In this document: piece after piece, positions 49,990 to 60,577 of the stretch
How the letters are laid out: every line of letters starts with the position of its first letter
How positions within the stretch are numbered: the first letter of the stretch is position 1
Source of the DNA: an uncultured delta proteobacterium
GTDB lineage: Bacteria > Desulfobacterota > RBG-13-43-22
NCBI GenBank assembly: GCA_963843145.1
Contig: CAWJJC010000017.1
Span: 96,001 to 160,000 of the forward strand
Direction of reading: 5' to 3'
DNA length: 64,000 nucleotides
Made by a program: the position numbers and the translations under genes
Notes under the pieces: model-generated
Database searches by the model: none
Seen by the model: only the letters and a program-made list of their open reading frames with translations
Told to the model about the DNA's origin: nothing

Positions 49990-50120
49990 GGTTGTTGGTT
50001 GCAGGTTACCAGTTGCCTGCTAAAACCTGACCAAAATTCGAAAAGTTTTTGTTTTGGTCATTTGTATTTTAGACCTTCGTGTTTGTTTCGGATTTCGTGC
50101 TTCGAATTTCGAATTTGTAT
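49990..50120. repeat. Heptamer-type degenerate repeat between convergent genes
   Basis: GGTTGTT GGTTGCA GGTTACC AGTTGCC and TTCGGAT TTCGTGC TTCGAAT TTCGAAT runs. Confidence 0.6.
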
Positions 50121-50124
50121 TCTC

Positions 50125-52820
50125 TTACTTTTTAGCCTCCTTCATCTGCTTCAGCAACTGCTCCAGGTCTTTCAGGGCCTGCCCATAAGCCGTCCAGTTC
50201 TCCTCCCGCAGGGCCTGTCTGGCCCTCTGCAATTGTTGCCAGGCTAAATCAGGCAAAGGTTTTCCCCCTTCGGATTTAACGACCGCCGCCTCGGGTGTCT
50301 TATCTTCTTTTGCCTTTTTGCCCTCCTGTCCGAAGATCCGGGCCAGGGCTTTGTCGAGGGTCTCTTCCATGGCAATCTGATTTTCATAGGCCACGATGAC
50401 CCGCTTCAATTCCGGGATCTGCCCCGACTCGGCCTTGATATAGAGGGGCTGCACATAGATCAAGGATTCCTCGATAGGGATGACCAGCAGCGTTCCCAAG
50501 GTGACCTTGGAGCCCCGCTGGTCCCACAAAGAGAGCTGGCGGGAGATCTCCGGGTCCTGGTTGATGCGGGACTCGATCTGCTTGGGCCCATAGACCAGAC
50601 GCTGCTTGGGAAAACGGTAGACCACGAATTTGCCGTAATCCGGAAAGTCGCACTTCACCGACATCCAGGCGGCCAGGTTGTCCTTTTTTTGCGGGGTAAA
50701 GGGGATCATCAGGATGAATTCCTCCTTCTTTTCCCTTGGCAGGCGCATGATGGTATAGTACGGCTCCATGTCCTTCTTGCCTGAACGCAAGTTGGTAGGA
50801 ATTTCCCACAGGTCTTCTTTATTATAAAAGGTCTGGGGATTGTTCATGTGGTAGGTGGCGTAGATGTTGGCCTGGAGGTTAAAAAGAAAATGGGGGTAGC
50901 GCAAATGGTTTTTTAGATCCGGGGCCAGGGCCGACAGCGGTTGGAACAACCCCGGGAAGATCCGGGCATACGCCTTAATTAAAGGGTCCTTTTCATCTTT
51001 GATATAATAATGCACGGTGCCTTCGTAAGCGTCCACCACCGCCACGGCCGAGTTGCGGATGTAATTCCCCAGTCGACGAATGGGTCGGGAGTAAGGATAG
51101 TTGTCGGAAACGGTGTAGGCATCGGCGATCCAGTACAACTTACCCTGGGAAACAACCAGATAGGGGTCGCGGTCTACCTGGAGAAACGGTACCACCTTCT
51201 GGACCCGGTTAAAAACGGAACGGGTAAAGAGGATTCGGCTTTCCGGGGTGATATCCGAGGAAAGGATAATTTTAAAAGACCCGAAACGTATGGCCCAAAG
51301 GATCTTTTTAAGAAACCCGCCCATGCGGATGCCGCCTTTTCCTTGATAACTGGCAAAGACGTTCTGATCGCCCGAAGGGTAATTAAATTCCTTTTGCCGG
51401 GTATTGACGATGATGTAATCGTTTTCGATCTCCCCAAAATAGATCTCCGGTTGGGTGACCTGCAGCGTGGTTTTGGAAACCGGGGGAATATCCTGGATCA
51501 GCAGGGCCGGCAACCCCTCCGGAGTCACCTGGTTTACCACCCCCAGGGTCAATCCGTAGCCGTGGGTATAAACCAAGTGCTCATTGATCCAGCCCTTACT
51601 GGGCAGGTCGGCGTAGGACAGTTCCCGAGGAGACAGCAACACCTGACGGTATTCGTTGTTAATCTGATAGCGGTCATTATCCACGGACTGGAACTTATAA
51701 TAGGTCCGGATTTCCTGGAGCTGGCTGAAGGTCTCCAAGAGCGGCTGGTGATCCCAGAGGCGGATGTTTTTAACGGTTAACCGGTTGTCATCGATCAATT
51801 CCGGGGTCAGGGAGGTGGCCGCCGTCAAGGTACGCTCTTCCACCCGATCCAACCCAAAACCCTGCAGGGTCCCTTGAATATAGCGGGCCAGGTAAGGCGT
51901 CTCCTTGTGAATCTCATTGGGGGTGACCACAAAACGCTGGACTATTCCCGGCAGGGCCTGGACGCCGATCAAATAGATCGCGATAAAGGCGGCCAGGACT
52001 CCCGTGAGGATCTTCCCTTTGGTTTGAACATTAATGAAAAAAAGACCAGCCCGGTAAAGGCCGAGATGATCACCATGAGGTTCATGGCCGGCAGGACATA
52101 GTTCTGATCCACAAAACCCGGGCCGAAGACTACTCCCCGGCCGGTAAACAGCATATCATAGCGGGAAAGATAAAAATAAAAGGCCAGGTAAAGAAACAGA
52201 ACTCCCAGAAGGGCCGCCAAATATTTCTTTACCCAGGGTTGAACGCTGAAGCCCTTATCCGAGTACTGAAACTGGAAACGGACAATGATGATCCCCAGCG
52301 CCGCGATGAGACAGAGGAACCACAAACCGCCGAACCACCCGCTCAGGTATTCCCAAAAAGGCAGCCGGAAGAGATAGAAAGAGATATCTTGCTGAAAAAC
52401 CGGATCCTTGGTTCCGACCGGCAGGGCATTCCAAAAAAGTTGCAGGTTTTCCCATTGTCCGGCCGCCGCCATTCCGAATAGGATTCCGATCAAGATGGCC
52501 GCCGGTTTCAAAAAACGCTGTAGTTGTTCTTCCAGCCAGACGGGTATCGTGAAGGGAAACTGACGGGGACCGGCTGAAACCGTCTGGTGGGCCAGCCGAA
52601 AAAGCACCCGACCGTTGGCATAAAAAATCAGCCCTGAAACCACACCCATAACCAAGGCCAACATGAATTTGAAATTTAGCAGGCGGAGGAAAACCGAGGC
52701 ATAGCCCAGGGATTGGAACCAGAGCCATTCGGTATAAAATCCCAGGAGGCTGGAACCAAAAACAAAGAGAAGAAAAATGATTCCAAAAAAAATGAGGGTG
52801 GAACGTTTGCGGGCGGCCAT
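50125..52820 (-). CDS. UPF0182 family membrane protein, frameshifted near 52020
   Basis: WLWF.SLG, DP.F..DISFY.F.LP in the first frame; NIRLWD, HLVYTHGYG, NYIRNS, FYN.EDLW in the second. Confidence 0.9.
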
Positions 52821-52974: not shown

Positions 52975-54313
52975 ATGATCGCTCGATACACCCGTCCCAT
53001 TATGGAAAAGCTCTGGAACCAGGAAACACGCTATCAAAAATGGCTGGAGGTGGAAATCGCCGCCTGTGAAGCCCTCGCCGGACTGGGCTATATTCCCCCC
53101 AAAGACCTGGCCGCGATCCAAAAAAAGGCCCGCTTCTCCGTGGAACGGATCGAGGCCATCGAGCTGGAAACCAAGCACGACGTCATCGCCTTTCTGACCA
53201 GTGTCGCGGAACACGTGGGACCGGCCAGCCGGCACATCCATTTGGGCTTAACCTCTTCCGATGTGCTGGATACTTCCATGGCCATCCTGTTGAAGGAAGC
53301 CGCGGATATTTTATTGGAAGACCTGAAGGCCTTGCAGGAAGCCATCCGGGAACAGGCCTTCCGCCATAAAAAAACAGTGATGATCGGCCGCTCCCACGGG
53401 ATCCATGCCGAACCCATCACCTTCGGCCTGAAACTGGCCATCTGGTACGACGAAAGCAAACGCAATCAGCGGCGTCTGGAACAGGCCCGGGAATCCATCG
53501 CCGTCGGCAAGATTTCCGGGGCGGTGGGGACCTTCGCCCACATCTCCCCGTCCGTTGAGGCTTATGTCTGTAAAAAACTGGGGCTCAAACCCGCTCCGGC
53601 CTCCAGCCAGATCGTCCAGCGGGACCGCTATGCCGAGTTTTTTTGCGCCCTGGCTATCCTGGCCGGATCCATCGAAAAGATGGCCGTGGAAATCCGACAC
53701 CTCCAACGGACCGAGGTTTTAGAGGCGGAAGAATATTTCTCCAAAGGACAGAAAGGCTCCTCGGCCATGCCCCACAAACGCAATCCCATTGCCTCGGAAA
53801 ACCTGGCCGGCCTGGCCCGACTGATCCGCGGCTATGCCCTGTCGGCCCTGGAAAACCAGCCCCTCTGGCACGAACGGGACATCAGCCATTCCTCGGTGGA
53901 GCGGGTCATCGGCCCCGATGCCACTACCCTCTTGGACTACATGCTGGCCCGCCTGACCGGCCTGATCAAGAACCTGATCGTCTACCCGGAAAACATGAAA
54001 CGCAACCTGGAGATCACCCGGGGCCTGCCCTTCTCCGAAGGGGTGCTCCTGGCCCTGACCCGTAAAGGAATCACCCGTGAGGAAGCCTATAAGGTAGTCC
54101 AGGAAAATGCGATGAAGGTCTGGGCCGGACGAGGGAAACCGCTTTCAGGACCTGCTGGCCGCCGATCCCCGCATTCAGCAATGGTTGAAGCCCAAGGAGC
54201 TGGCCGCCCTCTTTGACCTGGACCACACGTTGAAGAATGTGGATACGATTTTTAAACGAGTGTTTGGGAAGGTAAATAAATATAGCGACCTAAAAGGTGA
54301 ACCTGCCTTTTAA
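52975..54313 (+). CDS. purB: Adenylosuccinate lyase, frameshifted near 54135
   Basis: MIARY start after AAGGAGG; HDV, GLTSSD, GRSHG.HAEP, SSAMPHKRNP; C-terminus (FQDLL..DP...IFKRVFG) continues in another frame to TAA at 54313. Confidence 0.93.
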
Positions 54314-54364
54314 TAAACTATCTAGCGCGAACTACGAACTGTGAATATGGAAAAGGAGGATTAA

Positions 54365-54988
54365 CTACCAGATATCAGGCTTAAAAATTTTGGTGCCGGG
54401 GATCGGATTAGGCAATTGGGATTGGGCCAACGCCCCCTTCCTTATTCTTTTTATAAAATCAGCATGTCTTAACAATTCTTTCGATGGCCGGTCCACCGGG
54501 GTAAGTATACCTATTATTTTATCCGTTTGCTTTTTGACCAGTCGCAGGGCTTCTGCTAAGTCGCTGTCATTAGAAATGATTACAGCACAATCATAAACAT
54601 CTAGCCAGGCATCATTAAGTAAATGAACGGCCAGATTGACATCCGAGCCCTTTTCTTCCATTTTCTTTACTTTGGCGAATTGAATTGGTTGGGAATTTGC
54701 TAATGGCAGGAAAACAGGGTGGCTAAGGAAATGGCCGAAATAAATCCTAAGTTCCGGGATATGCTTTTCAACGGCCCGCAAGTAAGTCTGTTGACGTAAG
54801 GGTTTCCCAGGGTCTTGCTCCCCAGACACCAGGGCCGTAAAATATTTTATGATCTGAATTTCGTTGCGAGGGCTTAGGAGAAGGGATAGGAGCTTTTTGA
54901 AATCCAGCCATTTATAAGGGGTATCTTTAACCGTTCGGTAGTAAAGATTAAACCCATCGATGTAAATATAGGTTCGAAGTTTTTCCAT
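54365..54988 (-). CDS. NYN/LabA (DUF88, PIN-like) domain nuclease
   Basis: YIDGFNLY, EEKGSDVNLA, SNDSDL acidic active-site motifs. Confidence 0.9.
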   Translation of the reverse strand: MEKLRTYIYIDGFNLYYRTVKDTPYKWLDFKKLLSLLLSPRNEIQIIKYFTALVSGEQDPGKPLRQQTYLRAVEKHIPELRIYFGHFLSHPVFLPLANSQPIQFAKVKKMEEKGSDVNLAVHLLNDAWLDVYDCAVIISNDSDLAEALRLVKKQTDKIIGILTPVDRPSKELLRHADFIKRIRKGALAQSQLPNPIPGTKIFKPDIW

Positions 54989-55065
54989 AAAAAAGCAGGG
55001 GCCACAAGATGTGGCCCCGCAGCCCAGGTCGAAACCATGGGGGTGGTAAAAACCTTTAATAACCT
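54989..55065 (-). ncRNA. Putative ~75-nt structured leader RNA ending in an intrinsic terminator
   Basis: CCCA-T-GGT-TTCG-ACC-TGGG hairpin, then GCGGGGCCACA-TCT-TGTGGCCCCTGC-TTTTTT directly abutting the NYN ATG. Confidence 0.6.
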
Positions 55066-55071
55066 GGTAAG

Positions 55072-55101
55072 AAGTTAATCATGGGGGAATTTACTTGTCA
55101 A
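55072..55101 (-). promoter_or_regulatory. Sigma-70 promoter of the RNA-NYN unit
   Basis: TTGACA-N18-TAACTT. Confidence 0.65.
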
Positions 55102-55443
55102 GGGAAAAGTAATACTCGGCCTCGACCCCAAATTGGTTAATGGGCAACGGTCTCAGCCTCCATCTTTCGCTTCCCCCTTTCCTCGCTATCAGCTGAATTT
55201 CCTCAATCATTCTGGCGAAAAGAGAGATTTTCGGCCAATTCCCTTTTATCTGCTTTTTTACTATCCTCTTGATAACCGTTTAAATCTATTTACTTTTATT
55301 GAAAATTTTGCTTTATTCTCATAATGTCCATAACGAACCCGATCGTTTTTTAGGGTGGGGGAAAAGTCAACCACTTAGGCCGATAATCAAGAAAACTTCC
55401 TTTGCAGAGGAGTGGTAAATCCTCTTATTGATCGCTCAACTAT

Positions 55444-57043
55444 ATGCCTACGTTAGATTGGATTGGTAAGAAAGCGGTTTTAAACCACCACCGGCAGGTT
55501 CCTTATCACCTGCTGCGGTCTGAAGAAGCTTTGTCCGTTGGGGACCCGGACAGCGGAAATTTACTGGTCCAAGGCGACAATCTTTTGGCCCTCAAAGCCC
55601 TGCTCCCCTATTATGCCGGCAAGGTTAAATGTGTCTATATCGATCCCCCTTACAATACAGGCAACGAAAATTGGGTCTATAACGACGCCGTCAATAGTCC
55701 GGAGATGAAGCATTGGCTGGGGAAGGTGGTTGGGGCCGAGGCGGAAGATCTTTCCAGACACGACAAATGGCTATCTATGATGTATCCCCGTCTTTCTCTT
55801 TTGAGGGAATTTTTAACTGAAGACGGGGCCATCTTTATCAGCATTGACGATAACGAAGTCCAGTATCTTCGCTGTATAATGGATGAGATTTTTGGCCCTC
55901 GTAATTTTATTGCCTCAATAATCTGGCAAAAAATATTATTCACCAAAAAACACAGCACGCCATTTTTCTGAAAATCATGATTTTATAATCCTTTATTCAA
56001 AGAATGGAGATATTTGGCGACCCAAATTAATACCTCGAAGGGAACAGCAAAATATTCGATATAAAAATTTAGACGATGATCCAAGAGGGCCCTGGACTTC
56101 TGGTGATGTGTCCGCCCGCAATTTTTATGGTGCCGGGACATATCCAATTACTTGTCCTTCAGGACGACTTATCCCAGGCCCTCCAAAAGGGATGTATTGG
56201 CGAGTCTCTAAAGAAACGTTTGAAAGGTTGGACAATGAAGGGCGAATTTGGTGGGGGAAAAATAGAAACAATATTCCCCGTATCAAGAGATTTCTATCCG
56301 AAGTTAAAGATGGGATCGTACCAGAGACAATTTGGAGCCACGGTGAAGTCGGAAATACTCAAGAGGCAAAGAAAGAATTGTTGGCTATATGTGACTTTGA
56401 AGACTCCAGTGCCGTTTTTATTACCCCCAAACCAACCCGACTGATTCGACGAATCCTGGAAATCGCTACCGACAAAGATTCCCTGGTTTTGGATTCTTTT
56501 GCCGGCAGTGGGACCACAGGCCATGCTGTCTTGGGGTTAAACCAAGATGATGGGGGCAGCCGTCGTTTCATCCTGGTGGAGATGGACCCTTCTATTTGCC
56601 GAAAGGTGACCGCTCAGAGACTTACCCGGGTCATAGAAGGATATAACAATACTCCCGGTATGGGAGGGGGATTCCAATTCTGCTCCCTGGTTGAACCTCT
56701 CTTTGACGAATCCGGAAATATCCGGGAAACTGTCGCCTATCCGGATCTGGCGGCACACGTGTTCTTTGCCGAAACCGGATCCCCCATTCCCAAACCGGCT
56801 CAGGGTAATACCCCCCTTCTTGGTTTTCATAACGGGCAAGCTGTTTATCTTTTGTTTAATGGGGTGATGGGGGACAAGCGACCTCAAAGTGGGAATGTGT
56901 TAACCCGCGAACTCCTTCAAAAACTACCTCCCCATGATGGTCCTATGGTTGTTTATGGGGAGGGCTGCCGGATTGGGGAAAACCGGCTTAAAAGTGAAAG
57001 GATCATCTTCAAACAAATTCCCTACGCTATCAAAGTGAACTGA
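55444..57043 (+). CDS. mod: Type III R-M methyltransferase subunit (Mod), +1 frameshift near 55935
   Basis: MPTLDWIGK, GDNL.AL, IDPPYNTG, then PKP..LI.RI and DSFAGSGTT in the second frame; restored junction reads WQK.YSPKNTARHFSENHD. Confidence 0.88.
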
Positions 57044-57045
57044 AT

Positions 57046-59646
57046 ATGCTCCCCCTTCGGGAATATCAAAAACGAAGTCTCGATGCCTTACAATCCTATC
57101 TGAGTTTGGTCACCCAAGATGGGGCAAAAAGGGCCTATGTGATCCAAACCGAAAGGCCTTACCGATCCGTTCCCCAACTCCCGGAACTCCCCTACGTCTG
57201 TCTGCGGGTGCCAACCGGCGGGGGCAAGACCTTGATGGCCTGCCATGCGCTGGGAATGGTCGCCAAGACTTACTTGCAAAGAGAAAAAACTATCTGCCTG
57301 TGGTTGGTCCCCTCCAGTGCCATTCGCGAACAGACTCTAGTGGCCTTACGCAACCGTGAGCATCCCTACCGACAGGTTATCGATGATCAATTCGATGGTC
57401 TGGTCAGGGTGATGGATATCACCGAGGCCCTTTATGTCCAAAGGAACTCCCTCGAAGACGAGACCGTTATCATTATTTCCACCCTAGCCGCTCTCCGGGT
57501 GGAGGATACGGAGGGGAGGAAGGTTTACGAGGATTCCGGTGCTCTTCAGCATCATTTTTTCGGCCTATCCAGGAAATTGAAGGACCTGATCGAAAAGAGA
57601 GAAGACGGGACCATCCCCCATTCTCTCTCCAATGTCCTCAGGCTTTGGAGACCCATTGTGATCATGGATGAAGCCCACAACGCCCGCACCCCCCTGTCTT
57701 TTTATACCCTGGCCCGTTTTAACCCATCTTGCATCATAGAATTCACGGCTACTCCCGAAACGTCACATAACCCGGAAAAAAATCTATTTGCCAGTAATGT
57801 CCTGCATCACGTCTCGGCCGCCGAACTGAAGGCCGAGGAAATGATTAAACTTCCCATCAAGCTGCGGACTCATGAAGACTGGCAGGAGGTTATTGCCGAA
57901 GCCCTTCAGATGCAGCAAAGTTTAGAGAAGGCGGCCGGATCCGAAGAAAAAATTTCCGGCGAATACATACGGCCCATTATCCTCTTCCAGGCCCAGCCAA
58001 AAAATCACGACAAACCAACACTGACCGTGGAGGTCGTCAAGAAAACCCTGATCGAGGATTTTAAAATTTCTGAAGAGGAGATCGCTATTGCCACCGGTCA
58101 AACCCATGGAATTGACAACGTGGATATCTTCGCTCGGGATTGTCCCATCCGCTACATTATTACCGTCTATGCTTTGAAAGAAGGGTGGGACTGTTCCTAT
58201 GCCTATATCCTCTGCTCGTTGGCCGAAATGGGTTCATCTCGGGCAGTCGAACAGATTTTGGGAAGGATCCTGCGGCTTCCAGGAGCCAAAAGAAAAACTC
58301 GAGATCCTTTGAATTGGGCTTACGCTTTTGTGGCTTCACCAAAATTTCTAGAGGCAGCCAATTCTTTAAAAGATGCTTTGATTGAGAACGGCTTTCAGAA
58401 AATGGAGGCCATGGACTTCATTAAACCCTTTGAACAGGTCCCTATTTCCATCCGTGGTCCTTTGTTCGAACAGGTTTCGTGCTCGCCGGATTTTGCCAAG
58501 CTCCCCCCCACCCTTGAAAAGACCCTTACCTATGAGCAAAGCACCGGCAGGCTGGTTTTGGGAGGAGACCTTTCTTTTCGGGAAAAGCAGGCTTTAATTA
58601 AATCCTATGACCTCCCGGAAGATAAAGCGGCTGTCGAACGGCTTTATCAGGCCGTCCAAGGTGCACGGGTAGAAAAAGACACGACTCTCGCGACCAAGGA
58701 TTCCTTTCAGGTCCCCTTGATGGCCGTACGGTTTGGCGACCAGGTGGAATTATTTGAAGAAAATCATTTTCTTGATGTTCACTGGAATCTGGCCGAATTA
58801 AACCCTACGCTGTCGGAAGAAGAATTTCCATCTAAAAAGCTGTCCGGGGCCACTGGACAAGTGGATGTGGACGATAAGGGGATCATTGCGGTTCAATTTG
58901 TTCATCAAATACAGGAGCAAATAAGCTGGCTAACCAGTGAAGCCGGTTGGACTATGCCCGCCTTGGCCAACTGGATCGACCATCAAATCTACCATCCGGA
59001 CATCACCCAGGCCTATTCCAGTCTTTTTATCCATAAATCAATCGAAAATCTGATCGAAAAACGGGGGCTGACTATTGAACAATTGGCCCGGGAAAAATTC
59101 CGCCTTCGGAACGCCATAACCGCCAAGATTCAAGAATATCGCCTCGCCCAGCATAGAAAGGCTTATCAGCAGGCATTGTTCGGCTCTGAGGCTTTACCAG
59201 TCCAGGTCGGTCCCGGATTGATCCTCCCCTTATCCGAGGAAGACTATTCCCCAAATTGGTATTACGAAGGATCATTTGAATTCCAAAAGCATTATTTCAA
59301 GCGTATCGGAGAACTCCGATCCGAAGGGGAAGAATTTGAGTGCGCGGTGTTTTTGGACAGTCTCTCCCATATCAAATATTGGGTGCGGAATTTAGAACGA
59401 CGCAAAGATACCTCTTTTTGGCTGCAGACCGCTTCCGACCGTTTCTATCCAGACTTCCTTGCCCTCCTGGAAGACGGCCGAATTCTGGCCTTGGAATATA
59501 AGGGAGAACACCTTTGGAGCAACGACGACTCAAAAGAAAAGAGGGCGGTCGGCGAGCTCTGGGCGGAAAGAAGTGGGGGAAAATGTCTGTTTGTGATGAC
59601 CAAGGGGAAAAACTGGGAAACAGCCGTTGGAGGTTTAGGCACCTAG
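57046..59646 (+). CDS. res: Type III R-M restriction subunit (Res; SF2 helicase plus PD-(D/E)xK nuclease)
   Basis: PTGGGKT, DEAH, TATP, LKEGWD, QILGRILR, FYPDF...EYKG. Confidence 0.9.
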   Translation: MLPLREYQKRSLDALQSYLSLVTQDGAKRAYVIQTERPYRSVPQLPELPYVCLRVPTGGGKTLMACHALGMVAKTYLQREKTICLWLVPSSAIREQTLVALRNREHPYRQVIDDQFDGLVRVMDITEALYVQRNSLEDETVIIISTLAALRVEDTEGRKVYEDSGALQHHFFGLSRKLKDLIEKREDGTIPHSLSNVLRLWRPIVIMDEAHNARTPLSFYTLARFNPSCIIEFTATPETSHNPEKNLFASNVLHHVSAAELKAEEMIKLPIKLRTHEDWQEVIAEALQMQQSLEKAAGSEEKISGEYIRPIILFQAQPKNHDKPTLTVEVVKKTLIEDFKISEEEIAIATGQTHGIDNVDIFARDCPIRYIITVYALKEGWDCSYAYILCSLAEMGSSRAVEQILGRILRLPGAKRKTRDPLNWAYAFVASPKFLEAANSLKDALIENGFQKMEAMDFIKPFEQVPISIRGPLFEQVSCSPDFAKLPPTLEKTLTYEQSTGRLVLGGDLSFREKQALIKSYDLPEDKAAVERLYQAVQGARVEKDTTLATKDSFQVPLMAVRFGDQVELFEENHFLDVHWNLAELNPTLSEEEFPSKKLSGATGQVDVDDKGIIAVQFVHQIQEQISWLTSEAGWTMPALANWIDHQIYHPDITQAYSSLFIHKSIENLIEKRGLTIEQLAREKFRLRNAITAKIQEYRLAQHRKAYQQALFGSEALPVQVGPGLILPLSEEDYSPNWYYEGSFEFQKHYFKRIGELRSEGEEFECAVFLDSLSHIKYWVRNLERRKDTSFWLQTASDRFYPDFLALLEDGRILALEYKGEHLWSNDDSKEKRAVGELWAERSGGKCLFVMTKGKNWETAVGGLGT

Positions 59647-59817: not shown

Positions 59818-60090
59818 ATGTCGAAAATTAAAAAAGGGATAAGTCCAAAAGATCTATTATTAGACCTGAAAACTCCGTTAATGTGGAGGGATTTTAAAAA
59901 AATATTAAACAATTATGGATTTGAATGCGAAAACAAAAAGGGTTCAATTCGCGTTTTTGTCCATAACGACGGGGTTCTGTTTAACGCTCATGAACCCCAT
60001 GGCCGAGAAAAAACTACTCACCATTTAGACAGAAAAAAAGCCTGGGAGGCTATTGAGCGGGTGGAGGAATCGAATGAAGAAAGATATTAA
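59818..60090 (+). CDS. hicA: HicA family mRNA interferase toxin
   Basis: W.DF..IL..YGF....KGS.R.F...H.PH pattern; overlaps hicB. Confidence 0.8.
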   Translation: MSKIKKGISPKDLLLDLKTPLMWRDFKKILNNYGFECENKKGSIRVFVHNDGVLFNAHEPHGREKTTHHLDRKKAWEAIERVEESNEERY

Positions 60091-60577
60091 ATACTACATA
60101 GGGTTAAATTATCCGGTAACCCTTGAAAAAAATCCGGAAGGGGGATTCTCCATTGAAATTCCAGACCTTCCAGGGTGCCATGCTTATGGAAAAACCCTTA
60201 AAGAGGCATGGGAAAGACTCCAAAAAGCAAAAGAAGCATGGATAAGTGTAAGCATAGAAAAAGGGTTTCCAATCGAAGAACCCGTTGAAAATCAATTCAG
60301 CGGAAAATTACTATTAAGAATACCTCCAAAATTGCATGCTAAATTAGCTAAAGGGGCAAAAAGAAATCGCGTCAGTCTCAACAGATATATGCAAACCAAA
60401 TTGGAAGATGAGAACAACATCGGTTTGTTTGAAAAAAAGTTTGATTATATTGTTAACAAACTTAATATGTTAGAAGAAAGAATTGTCGATCTTTCCTCAA
60501 AAAGAGATAAGACCGAAGGTATCCCAACAACTACTTCAAGTAGCATTGAGGACTTTGCACCAAAATATATAAATTAG
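60074..60577 (+). CDS. hicB: HicB family antitoxin
   Basis: PDLPGC.A.G.T..EA and FSGK..LRIP..LH..L...A....VSLN RHH; start at ATG 60074 after GGAGG. Confidence 0.88.
   Translation: MKKDIKYYIGLNYPVTLEKNPEGGFSIEIPDLPGCHAYGKTLKEAWERLQKAKEAWISVSIEKGFPIEEPVENQFSGKLLLRIPPKLHAKLAKGAKRNRVSLNRYMQTKLEDENNIGLFEKKFDYIVNKLNMLEERIVDLSSKRDKTEGIPTTTSSSIEDFAPKYIN

Follow-up and report, generated by a model that had tools for sequence, protein, structure and literature searches.

A conserved two-hairpin RNA beside genes of NYN-domain ribonucleases: a candidate type III-like RNA antitoxin

The type III toxin-antitoxin (TA) systems ToxIN, CptIN and TenpIN share one layout: a single promoter is followed by a non-coding RNA, an intrinsic terminator and the gene of an endoribonuclease. 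Their antitoxins are tandem repeats processed by toxins of the ToxN fold and, to our knowledge, only these three families are known so far. The present work concerns a locus built on the same plan, found in 64,000 nucleotides (nt) of DNA from an uncultured delta proteobacterium (contig CAWJJC010000017.1, positions 96,001 to 160,000; this whole stretch is hereafter the window). On its minus strand a short structured RNA is predicted just ahead of the gene of an NYN-domain ribonuclease (RNase), as detailed in Table 1. We give a probability of roughly one half to the view that the two make up a two-gene module, in which an RNA of about 70-80 nt would act as a type III-like antitoxin of the NYN RNase. 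As in the known systems, the design predicts an excess of RNA over enzyme, and the module lies among defence genes. It differs from them in that the enzyme has an NYN/PIN-like fold, not the ToxN/AbiQ fold (ToxN, CptN, TenpN), in that its RNA is a single unit of two hairpins and not a tandem array processed into units (no tandem repeat was found within 54300-55500), and in that the RNA and enzyme genes of sister clades are divergently oriented. Lacking both tandem repeats and a ToxN-type fold, the module is not filed here under ToxIN, CptIN or TenpIN.

Other described systems resemble the locus by their enzyme. Like the VapBC-type PIN systems, which belong to type II, the NYN module is mobile and patchily distributed and has as its presumed toxin a small, metal-dependent RNase of PIN-like type; by contrast, it has no gene of a protein antitoxin, and a structured RNA stands in that place. 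The NYN protein itself matches Pfam PF01936 (E 6.9e-12, 46.5 bits against a gathering cut-off of 24.2) and, over nearly its full length, the HEC-09 hidden Markov model of PADLOC (PDLC04163; E 2.3e-42, residues 5-203 on profile positions 3-198/203). HEC-09 was described as an NYN/MARF1-like single-domain protein inside defence loci, which gave no defence against the phages tested; it is treated as a single gene in the main text of the preprint, where neither 'non-coding' nor 'ncRNA' is used (0 occurrences) (Payne et al., bioRxiv 10.1101/2024.01.29.577857). Whereas HEC-09 is embedded in Hma (helicase-methylase-ATPase), the window gene adjoins a type III restriction-modification (R-M) system, and its protein belongs to a sister clade of the HEC-09 core (142.5 bits, against 290.1 for L084 of that core). 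An earlier interpretation of this DNA from its letters alone, the sequence-only reading, had known of no characterised NYN/DUF88 example of this layout. This must be amended for the protein, which matches a family that was tested without showing defence. The literature searched, with subscription journals outside its coverage, held no description of an NYN-associated RNA or RNA antitoxin.

NCBIfam has no family for the window protein, and a sequence search of the PDB with it gave no match at E up to 1. Its AlphaFold (AF2) model, with a predicted local distance difference test (pLDDT) value of 90, has as best Foldseek matches 2qip and the NYN domain of MARF1. Residues D11, D116, D141 and D143 are invariant in 25 NYN sequences. 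A catalytic role of NYN acidic residues is indicated by the comparison with MARF1 in the preprint cited (Payne et al., bioRxiv 10.1101/2024.01.29.577857), and by these conserved Asp residues we judge the active site to be intact.

At the locus, everything that had been read from the letters is found in its place on the minus strand: the promoter TTGACA-N18-TAACTT, the UUCG-capped and bulged hairpin, the terminator, the contact of its U6 tract with the ATG, and the lack of a Shine-Dalgarno motif, no purine-rich one being present between terminator and start codon in the window sequence. The order promoter, RNA, terminator, RNase is likewise borne out by the sequence and by a terminator scan, which detects the terminator; a promoter scan demanding at least 4/6 per hexamer leaves the window promoter unlisted because of its weak -10 box. 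Two unpaired bases (CU) link hairpin 1 to hairpin 2, the promoter lies 30 nt upstream of hairpin 1, which makes for a longer 5' tail, and there is no space for a separate NYN promoter. A stretch of 96 nt has a folding energy of -32.9 kcal/mol (z = -2.74; 2/200 shuffles as good). A stretch of 241 nt that includes upstream sequence is not better than its shuffles (z = -1.19), so that there is no sign of structure extending 5' of the promoter. Terminator-like sites alone are not rare in the region (2 found, 4.5 expected); it is conservation that raises this element above chance. The sequence-only reading had also drawn attention to CCCCCATG, said to recur in RNA and promoter spacer; both copies are there (55036-55043 and 55080-55087), but at a frequency that chance accounts for (4 copies in the window, 6.8 expected), and no second copy was seen in the promoter spacers of homologs. 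A T-loop or tRNA-mimic (transfer RNA mimic) reading of GGUUUCGACC was dropped, the register being judged, by eye only, unfit for a T-arm.

Conservation was first apparent in species-representative genomes, where 19 loci carry relatives of the NYN gene. In the 15 that include the gene start (L002-L016; 52-65% identity; Desulfobacterota, Ignavibacteria and others), the same two hairpins stand upstream of NYN, 15 times out of 15. A sequence pattern of hairpin 1 of this RNA, which we name class 1, retrieved 58 genome loci and 4 viral contigs. In the RNA-anchored alignment (A2; 61 distinct copies, chosen by exact hairpin-1 match), 98.3% of the cells are paired, both sides have changed in 10 of the 18 pairs, and none of 500 shuffles does as well; for hairpin 2 the figures are 99.3% and 8 of 10 pairs. 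Because A2 had been selected by sequence, the covariation test was repeated on a protein-anchored set, made of the best 80 of 555 metagenome NYN relatives (44-65% identity). A covariance model, R1, located the RNA in 63 of those 80 loci, and in the resulting alignment (A4), which is fitted to the model and somewhat favours structure, 97.1% of the cells are paired, with changes on both sides in 17/18 pairs (257 cells) and, again, 0/500 shuffles as good; slid controls have at most 55.4% paired cells. Changes on both sides affect 8/8 pairs of hairpin 1 and 9/10 of hairpin 2.

A second model, R2, built from the metagenome protein-anchored sequences, contains no sequence from the window genome. It finds the RNA at 75 of the 80 loci. 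Four of the misses (L117, L151, L156, L164) have no more than 36 nt of sequence ahead of the gene and L136 is a true miss, which places the RNA beside 75 of the 76 assessable loci among these best 80 of 555. The only R2 match in the window falls at 54973-55055 on the minus strand (70.1 bits, E 4e-22), and the R1 match there, at 68.7 bits, is the sole one in the whole genome. The class-1 RNA, as aligned, is conserved across phyla; the sequence-only reading had staked its case on a conserved and covarying RNA upstream of homologous genes, and here the outcome is in its favour. Rfam 15 has nothing at the window element (E up to 5), nor at the RNAs beside other NYN genes, including the tested representatives of classes 2 and 3 introduced below (E up to 1). 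Upstream of hairpin 1, the best sigma-70-like match reaches at least 9/12 in 50 of 75 homologous loci (shuffled mean best, 6.9), and for 41 of these 50 promoters the distance from the end of the -10 box to the hairpin is 11-21 nt. In the Ignavibacteria loci one sees by eye, in place of a sigma-70-like promoter, a box TAnnTTTG, presumably the -7 box of Bacteroidota type. Two RNA units are present only in L036 and L138. At L036 (4527-4597 and 4763-4892), two class-1 units in tandem (60-nt period), the first without full U-run, stand ahead of an intact NYN gene, with a tRNA gene some 165 nt upstream of them.

A promoter, a structured leader, an intrinsic terminator and a gene, in that order, would also be found in a purely cis-acting attenuator or riboswitch-like leader, gating the transcription of NYN on some signal. 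We consider this very improbable. No conserved antiterminator was found, and the pairing of a C-run with a G-run, put forward by the sequence-only reading as an alternative fold, fails for want of covariation: the C-run belongs to hairpin 1, as its covarying 5' arm, and many homologs have AGAG in the supposed partner region without any change in the C-run. Furthermore, orphan copies of the RNA (L044, L071) retain their own promoter and terminator, and divergent RNA genes, present in three class-1 loci and in the whole of class 3, cannot act in cis. The layout is co-directional in 72 of the 75 RNA-positive class-1 loci; in the other three, L166, L178 and L182, RNA and intact NYN gene are on opposite strands at a distance of 60-100 nt; each RNA has a TTGACA-N17 promoter and a U-run to itself, and nothing co-directional follows it. 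The hairpin-1 stems of these three RNAs differ from one another, and all still pair.

Two further NYN clades have RNAs of their own, unrelated to that of class 1. Class 2 is an L092-like clade with 200 relatives in many phyla and a protein of about 216 amino acids (aa). In all of the best 80 loci, which were inspected (L188-L267), a promoter and a hairpin-terminator of about 45 nt come right before NYN (e.g. L188:521-600). With 77 loci aligned, 3 being omitted as their RNA is further upstream, both sides have changed in 8/12 pairs, and the consensus is approximately UUGCUCCCCGYCCGACACGCCGAAAGGCCYCGGGCGGGGUUAUUUUUU. Class 3 is the HEC-09 core clade itself (L084-like, 201 relatives, of which the best 80, L284-L363, were inspected). 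Its RNA, of two hairpins, is invariably encoded divergently from NYN, the distance between the RNA 5' end and the start of the NYN gene being 38-112 nt, and shows in order AACAGCGC, a hairpin with the apex GAUAGCAUC, yyGAC, and a terminator with the U-rich end GUUUCUUUUU (e.g. L310:281-349, minus). A regular expression picked 55 loci, 53 of them usable, and in this alignment both sides have changed in 12/16 pairs; by eye, most of the remaining loci also carry the RNA; L300 and L355 are without upstream DNA, and L303 and L362 show no RNA. There are thus at least three RNA families, by sequence and predicted fold, each tracking its own NYN clade and together spread over hundreds of loci in many bacterial phyla. 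Together with the divergent copies, these two clades make the RNA a stand-alone partner gene, and not only a 5' leader, linked to NYN in a manner that is near-obligate and independent of orientation.

This bears on another explanation, in which the RNA is both an expression-control element and a substrate: NYN would bind or cleave hairpins in its own leader and in the free RNA, setting its own level, and no toxin would be neutralised. Every NYN transcript of the window begins with this RNA, whose terminator hairpin covers the start codon of NYN; in the homologs L150, L162, L168 and L177, hairpin 2 has no U-run, as in a plain structure of the 5' untranslated region. Regnase-1, another nuclease, is said to regulate itself through stem-loops. 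We nevertheless find this explanation unlikely: in the HEC-09 core clade and in the three divergent class-1 loci the RNA, being on the other strand, is outside the NYN messenger RNA, and an RNA with perfect helices persists where NYN is broken or gone.

The fate of the two partners in decaying loci can be followed further. Among the 58 RNA-bearing genome loci, NYN is full-length in 26, truncated, frameshifted or fragmentary in 21 and without trace in 7, while 4, at contig ends, are unjudgeable. Of the 54 assessable loci, 28 therefore have a broken or missing NYN, against a single intact NYN without RNA in 76 loci, a pattern in which recent events are indistinguishable from selection. In the 21 loci with a broken NYN, 210/210 hairpin-2 cells still pair, and most of hairpin 2 is outside the pattern used for the search. 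Such an order of loss, NYN before RNA, is as expected for a toxin and its antidote, on the evidence of these sequences. Two fragments, the C-terminal end of NYN alone at the start of locus L017 and a degraded piece in L018, have no R1 match, so that RNA and NYN can also decay together. In a genome of the same genus, G001, a variant of the class-1 RNA, its hairpin 1 interrupted by an additional hairpin, occupies a different locus (L277:1495-1635); its U5 abuts the ATG of an NYN remnant that has lost its middle, the first 7 codons running directly into the last 16 or so.

The same counts have to be confronted with the idea that the RNA is an activating cofactor or a targeting RNA, the active form being a ribonucleoprotein in which activity, assembly or the recognition of targets depends on the RNA. 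A near-obligate, orientation-independent linkage would suit this idea, as would the apical sequence of hairpin 1, nearly invariant within each RNA class. There is also a precedent: conserved RNAs adjacent to nuclease genes were later found to be guides, as with HEARO, the omega-RNA of IscB, which is likewise a conserved structured RNA in tight genetic linkage with a nuclease gene in different phyla. The NYN RNA is, by contrast, much shorter, its enzyme has an RNase-type NYN domain, and no variable, guide-like segment was seen in it, the 5' tail being short and partly conserved. With a cofactor, orphan RNAs should not outlast orphan NYN genes, and yet this is what the counts of broken partners display; an excess of RNA, produced by the design of the terminator, is also more in keeping with an inhibitor than with a cofactor acting stoichiometrically. 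This makes a cofactor role rather improbable in our eyes.

If the RNA is instead a type III-like antitoxin, the system might work as follows. The RNA would be transcribed from its own promoter, mostly ending at its own terminator. Since this terminator separates RNA and NYN in the window, NYN would be made only from a minority of read-through transcripts, where the terminator hairpin would further mask the start codon, and the RNA would be in excess over the enzyme. It would act in trans, most likely by occupying or blocking the NYN protein. Should its supply collapse, for instance by a phage-induced shut-off of transcription or by RNA decay, NYN would be freed and would cut cellular or phage RNA. 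Binding of the RNA to NYN, inhibition of NYN, toxicity of the free enzyme and a role in defence are all, in this scheme, what we infer from the arrangement described.

Phages carry copies of the RNA that fit more than one explanation. Both hairpins, without the usual U-tail, recur in the viral contigs L082, L105 and L107 and in L068, a contig of a metagenome-assembled genome, each time 35-40 nt behind the gene of a tyrosine integrase (Table 1), and this resemblance to an attachment site suggests phages that integrate into the RNA gene, an event that may separate NYN from its promoter. L080, a further viral contig, has a complete copy of the class-1 RNA, terminator included (2312-2390, minus; R2 43.2 bits), directly behind an anti-restriction gene of Ulx-like type (phrog_1629, E 3e-32) and ahead of a T4-like portal gene; this single case suggests a decoy directed against NYN. 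One match of the class-2 RNA in viral contigs (L274), being RNA with a truncated NYN fragment, is uninformative. BLAST with the RNA gave no match in phage or plasmid record collections. One could then argue that the element is an unrelated small RNA or a conserved integration target, beside which NYN is merely riding: the copies next to integrases would be of that kind, and tRNA genes lie just upstream in L036 and, by eye, in L067. Three families of RNA that each track their own NYN clade are hard to reconcile with this, as is the joint absence of RNA and NYN in G002, another genome of the genus. Class-1 matches of at least 37 bits exist in 5 of 61 related genomes, in 4 of these beside an NYN gene and in the fifth, G001, beside the NYN remnant described above; with 56 of the 61 devoid of such a match, the RNA is not a housekeeping gene. 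We hold the chances of a chance neighbour or a bare integration target to be slim.

Several points weigh against the antitoxin proposal. The known type III systems have tandem repeats and a ToxN fold, where this one has a single RNA unit and an NYN fold. The RNA is more conserved across phyla than type III antitoxins are known to be, which could reflect an interaction with conserved host machinery. The asymmetry of decay is confounded, the RNA being a mutational target about 6-fold smaller than NYN, and each of the two sets compared was selected for one intact partner, by exact hairpin-1 match in one and by best-scoring protein matches in the other. The phage copies next to integrases may simply be attachment sites. 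Finally, when HEC-09, which represents a sister clade, was cloned together with some 150 bp upstream of it, no defence was seen in E. coli, and it is not among the constructs that the preprint marks as toxic (Payne et al., bioRxiv 10.1101/2024.01.29.577857). The published construct may or may not include the divergent class-3 RNA. All in all, the interpretation given by the sequence-only reading, a single-unit RNA antitoxin restraining an NYN nuclease, is partly supported.

More tentatively, and with odds that we put somewhat below even, the RNases of NYN/HEC-09 type would form a large unrecognised superfamily of RNA-protein TA or abortive-infection modules, with a dedicated RNA for each clade, restraint in trans, hundreds of loci across many phyla, and phages that counter them through RNA decoys or integration into the RNA gene. 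If the antitoxin proposal is true, a new toxin fold, NYN/PIN-like, would join the RNA-antitoxin systems, together with a new antitoxin architecture, that of a single structured unit whose orientation with respect to the enzyme gene is irrelevant. At least three new and widespread structured RNA families, absent from Rfam, would be defined. A partner RNA overlooked within or near the 150 bp or so of cloned upstream DNA may explain why HEC-09 seemed inert as a single gene. With two small parts only, the predictions are clear: toxicity, rescue in trans, and phage escape by RNA mimicry.

Table 1. Features of the RNA-NYN locus and its neighbours (window coordinates), and copies of the RNA beside integrase genes (contig coordinates)
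Feature	Position	Strand	Basis or remark
-35 box TTGACA, RNA promoter	55096-55101	minus	read from sequence
-10 box TAACTT, weak (3/6 positions), 18-nt spacer from -35	55072-55077	minus	window promoter 9/12
Predicted small RNA, ~77 nt	54989-55065	minus	5' end inferred from -10 box, 3' end from U-tract
Hairpin 1: CCCA/UGGG base, bulged U, GGU-UUCG-ACC apex	55023-55041	minus	sequence, folding, covariation
Hairpin 2, intrinsic terminator: GC/GC base, bulged U on 3' side, GC-rich stem of 8-9 bp	54995-55020	minus	terminator scan
U6 tract, abuts NYN start codon	54989-54994	minus	sequence and terminator scan
NYN-domain RNase gene, 207 aa, ATG at 54988	54365-54988	minus	Pfam PF01936
Type III R-M Mod, split	55444-55971 + 56108-57043	plus	Pfam N6_N4_Mtase
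Type III R-M Res	57046-59646	plus	Pfam ResIII
Integrase-adjacent RNA copies	L082:1250-1320, L105:550-620, L107:2574-2644, L068:5050-5121		

The genes around the module remain to be described. NYN has the type III genes mod and res on one side and the gene of adenylosuccinate lyase on the other. A gene of the HicB antitoxin family comes directly after res (60053-60577), so that the islet holds further TA-like genes; upstream of hicB, a 90-aa open reading frame (ORF; 59818-60090) has no NCBIfam match. G002 shares with the window the UPF0182, adenylosuccinate lyase and type III R-M genes on either side, at 89-95% identity, and 578 nt with two overlapping small ORFs replace the 1160 nt of RNA and NYN. 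This slot, between adenylosuccinate lyase and mod (L268:4699-5194), encodes proteins of 83 and 85 aa. The first has a sub-threshold match to Phd/YefM (E 3.9e-4); the second, without Pfam or NCBIfam match, is ParE/RelE/YafQ-like by language-model (Atlas) features alone (0.96), and the slot thus looks like a type II TA-like pair, Phd/YefM-like and ParE/RelE-like. As G002 has the R-M system without RNA and NYN, R-M is context and not part of the module. The genomes G001 and G003 are without the whole islet. A defence islet had been proposed from the letters, and that the neighbourhood is a defence or TA islet is supported by the predicted R-M and HicB genes of the window and by the pair in the G002 slot.

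The split Mod consists of ORFs of 175 and 311 aa, which are the N- and C-terminal parts of N6_N4_Mtase, the first ORF of the G002 homolog having 312 aa; a frameshift, phase variation or decay to a pseudogene could lie behind the split. Just downstream of UPF0182, an element of about 85 nt (50032-50116) has dozens of copies in three genomes of the same genus, at 80-93% identity and on both strands, and is probably a REP/MITE-like repeat. UPF0182 itself is read as two ORFs, 50125-51972 (615 aa) and 51969-52820 (283 aa), with an overlap of 4 nt, which could be a frameshift or a natural split.

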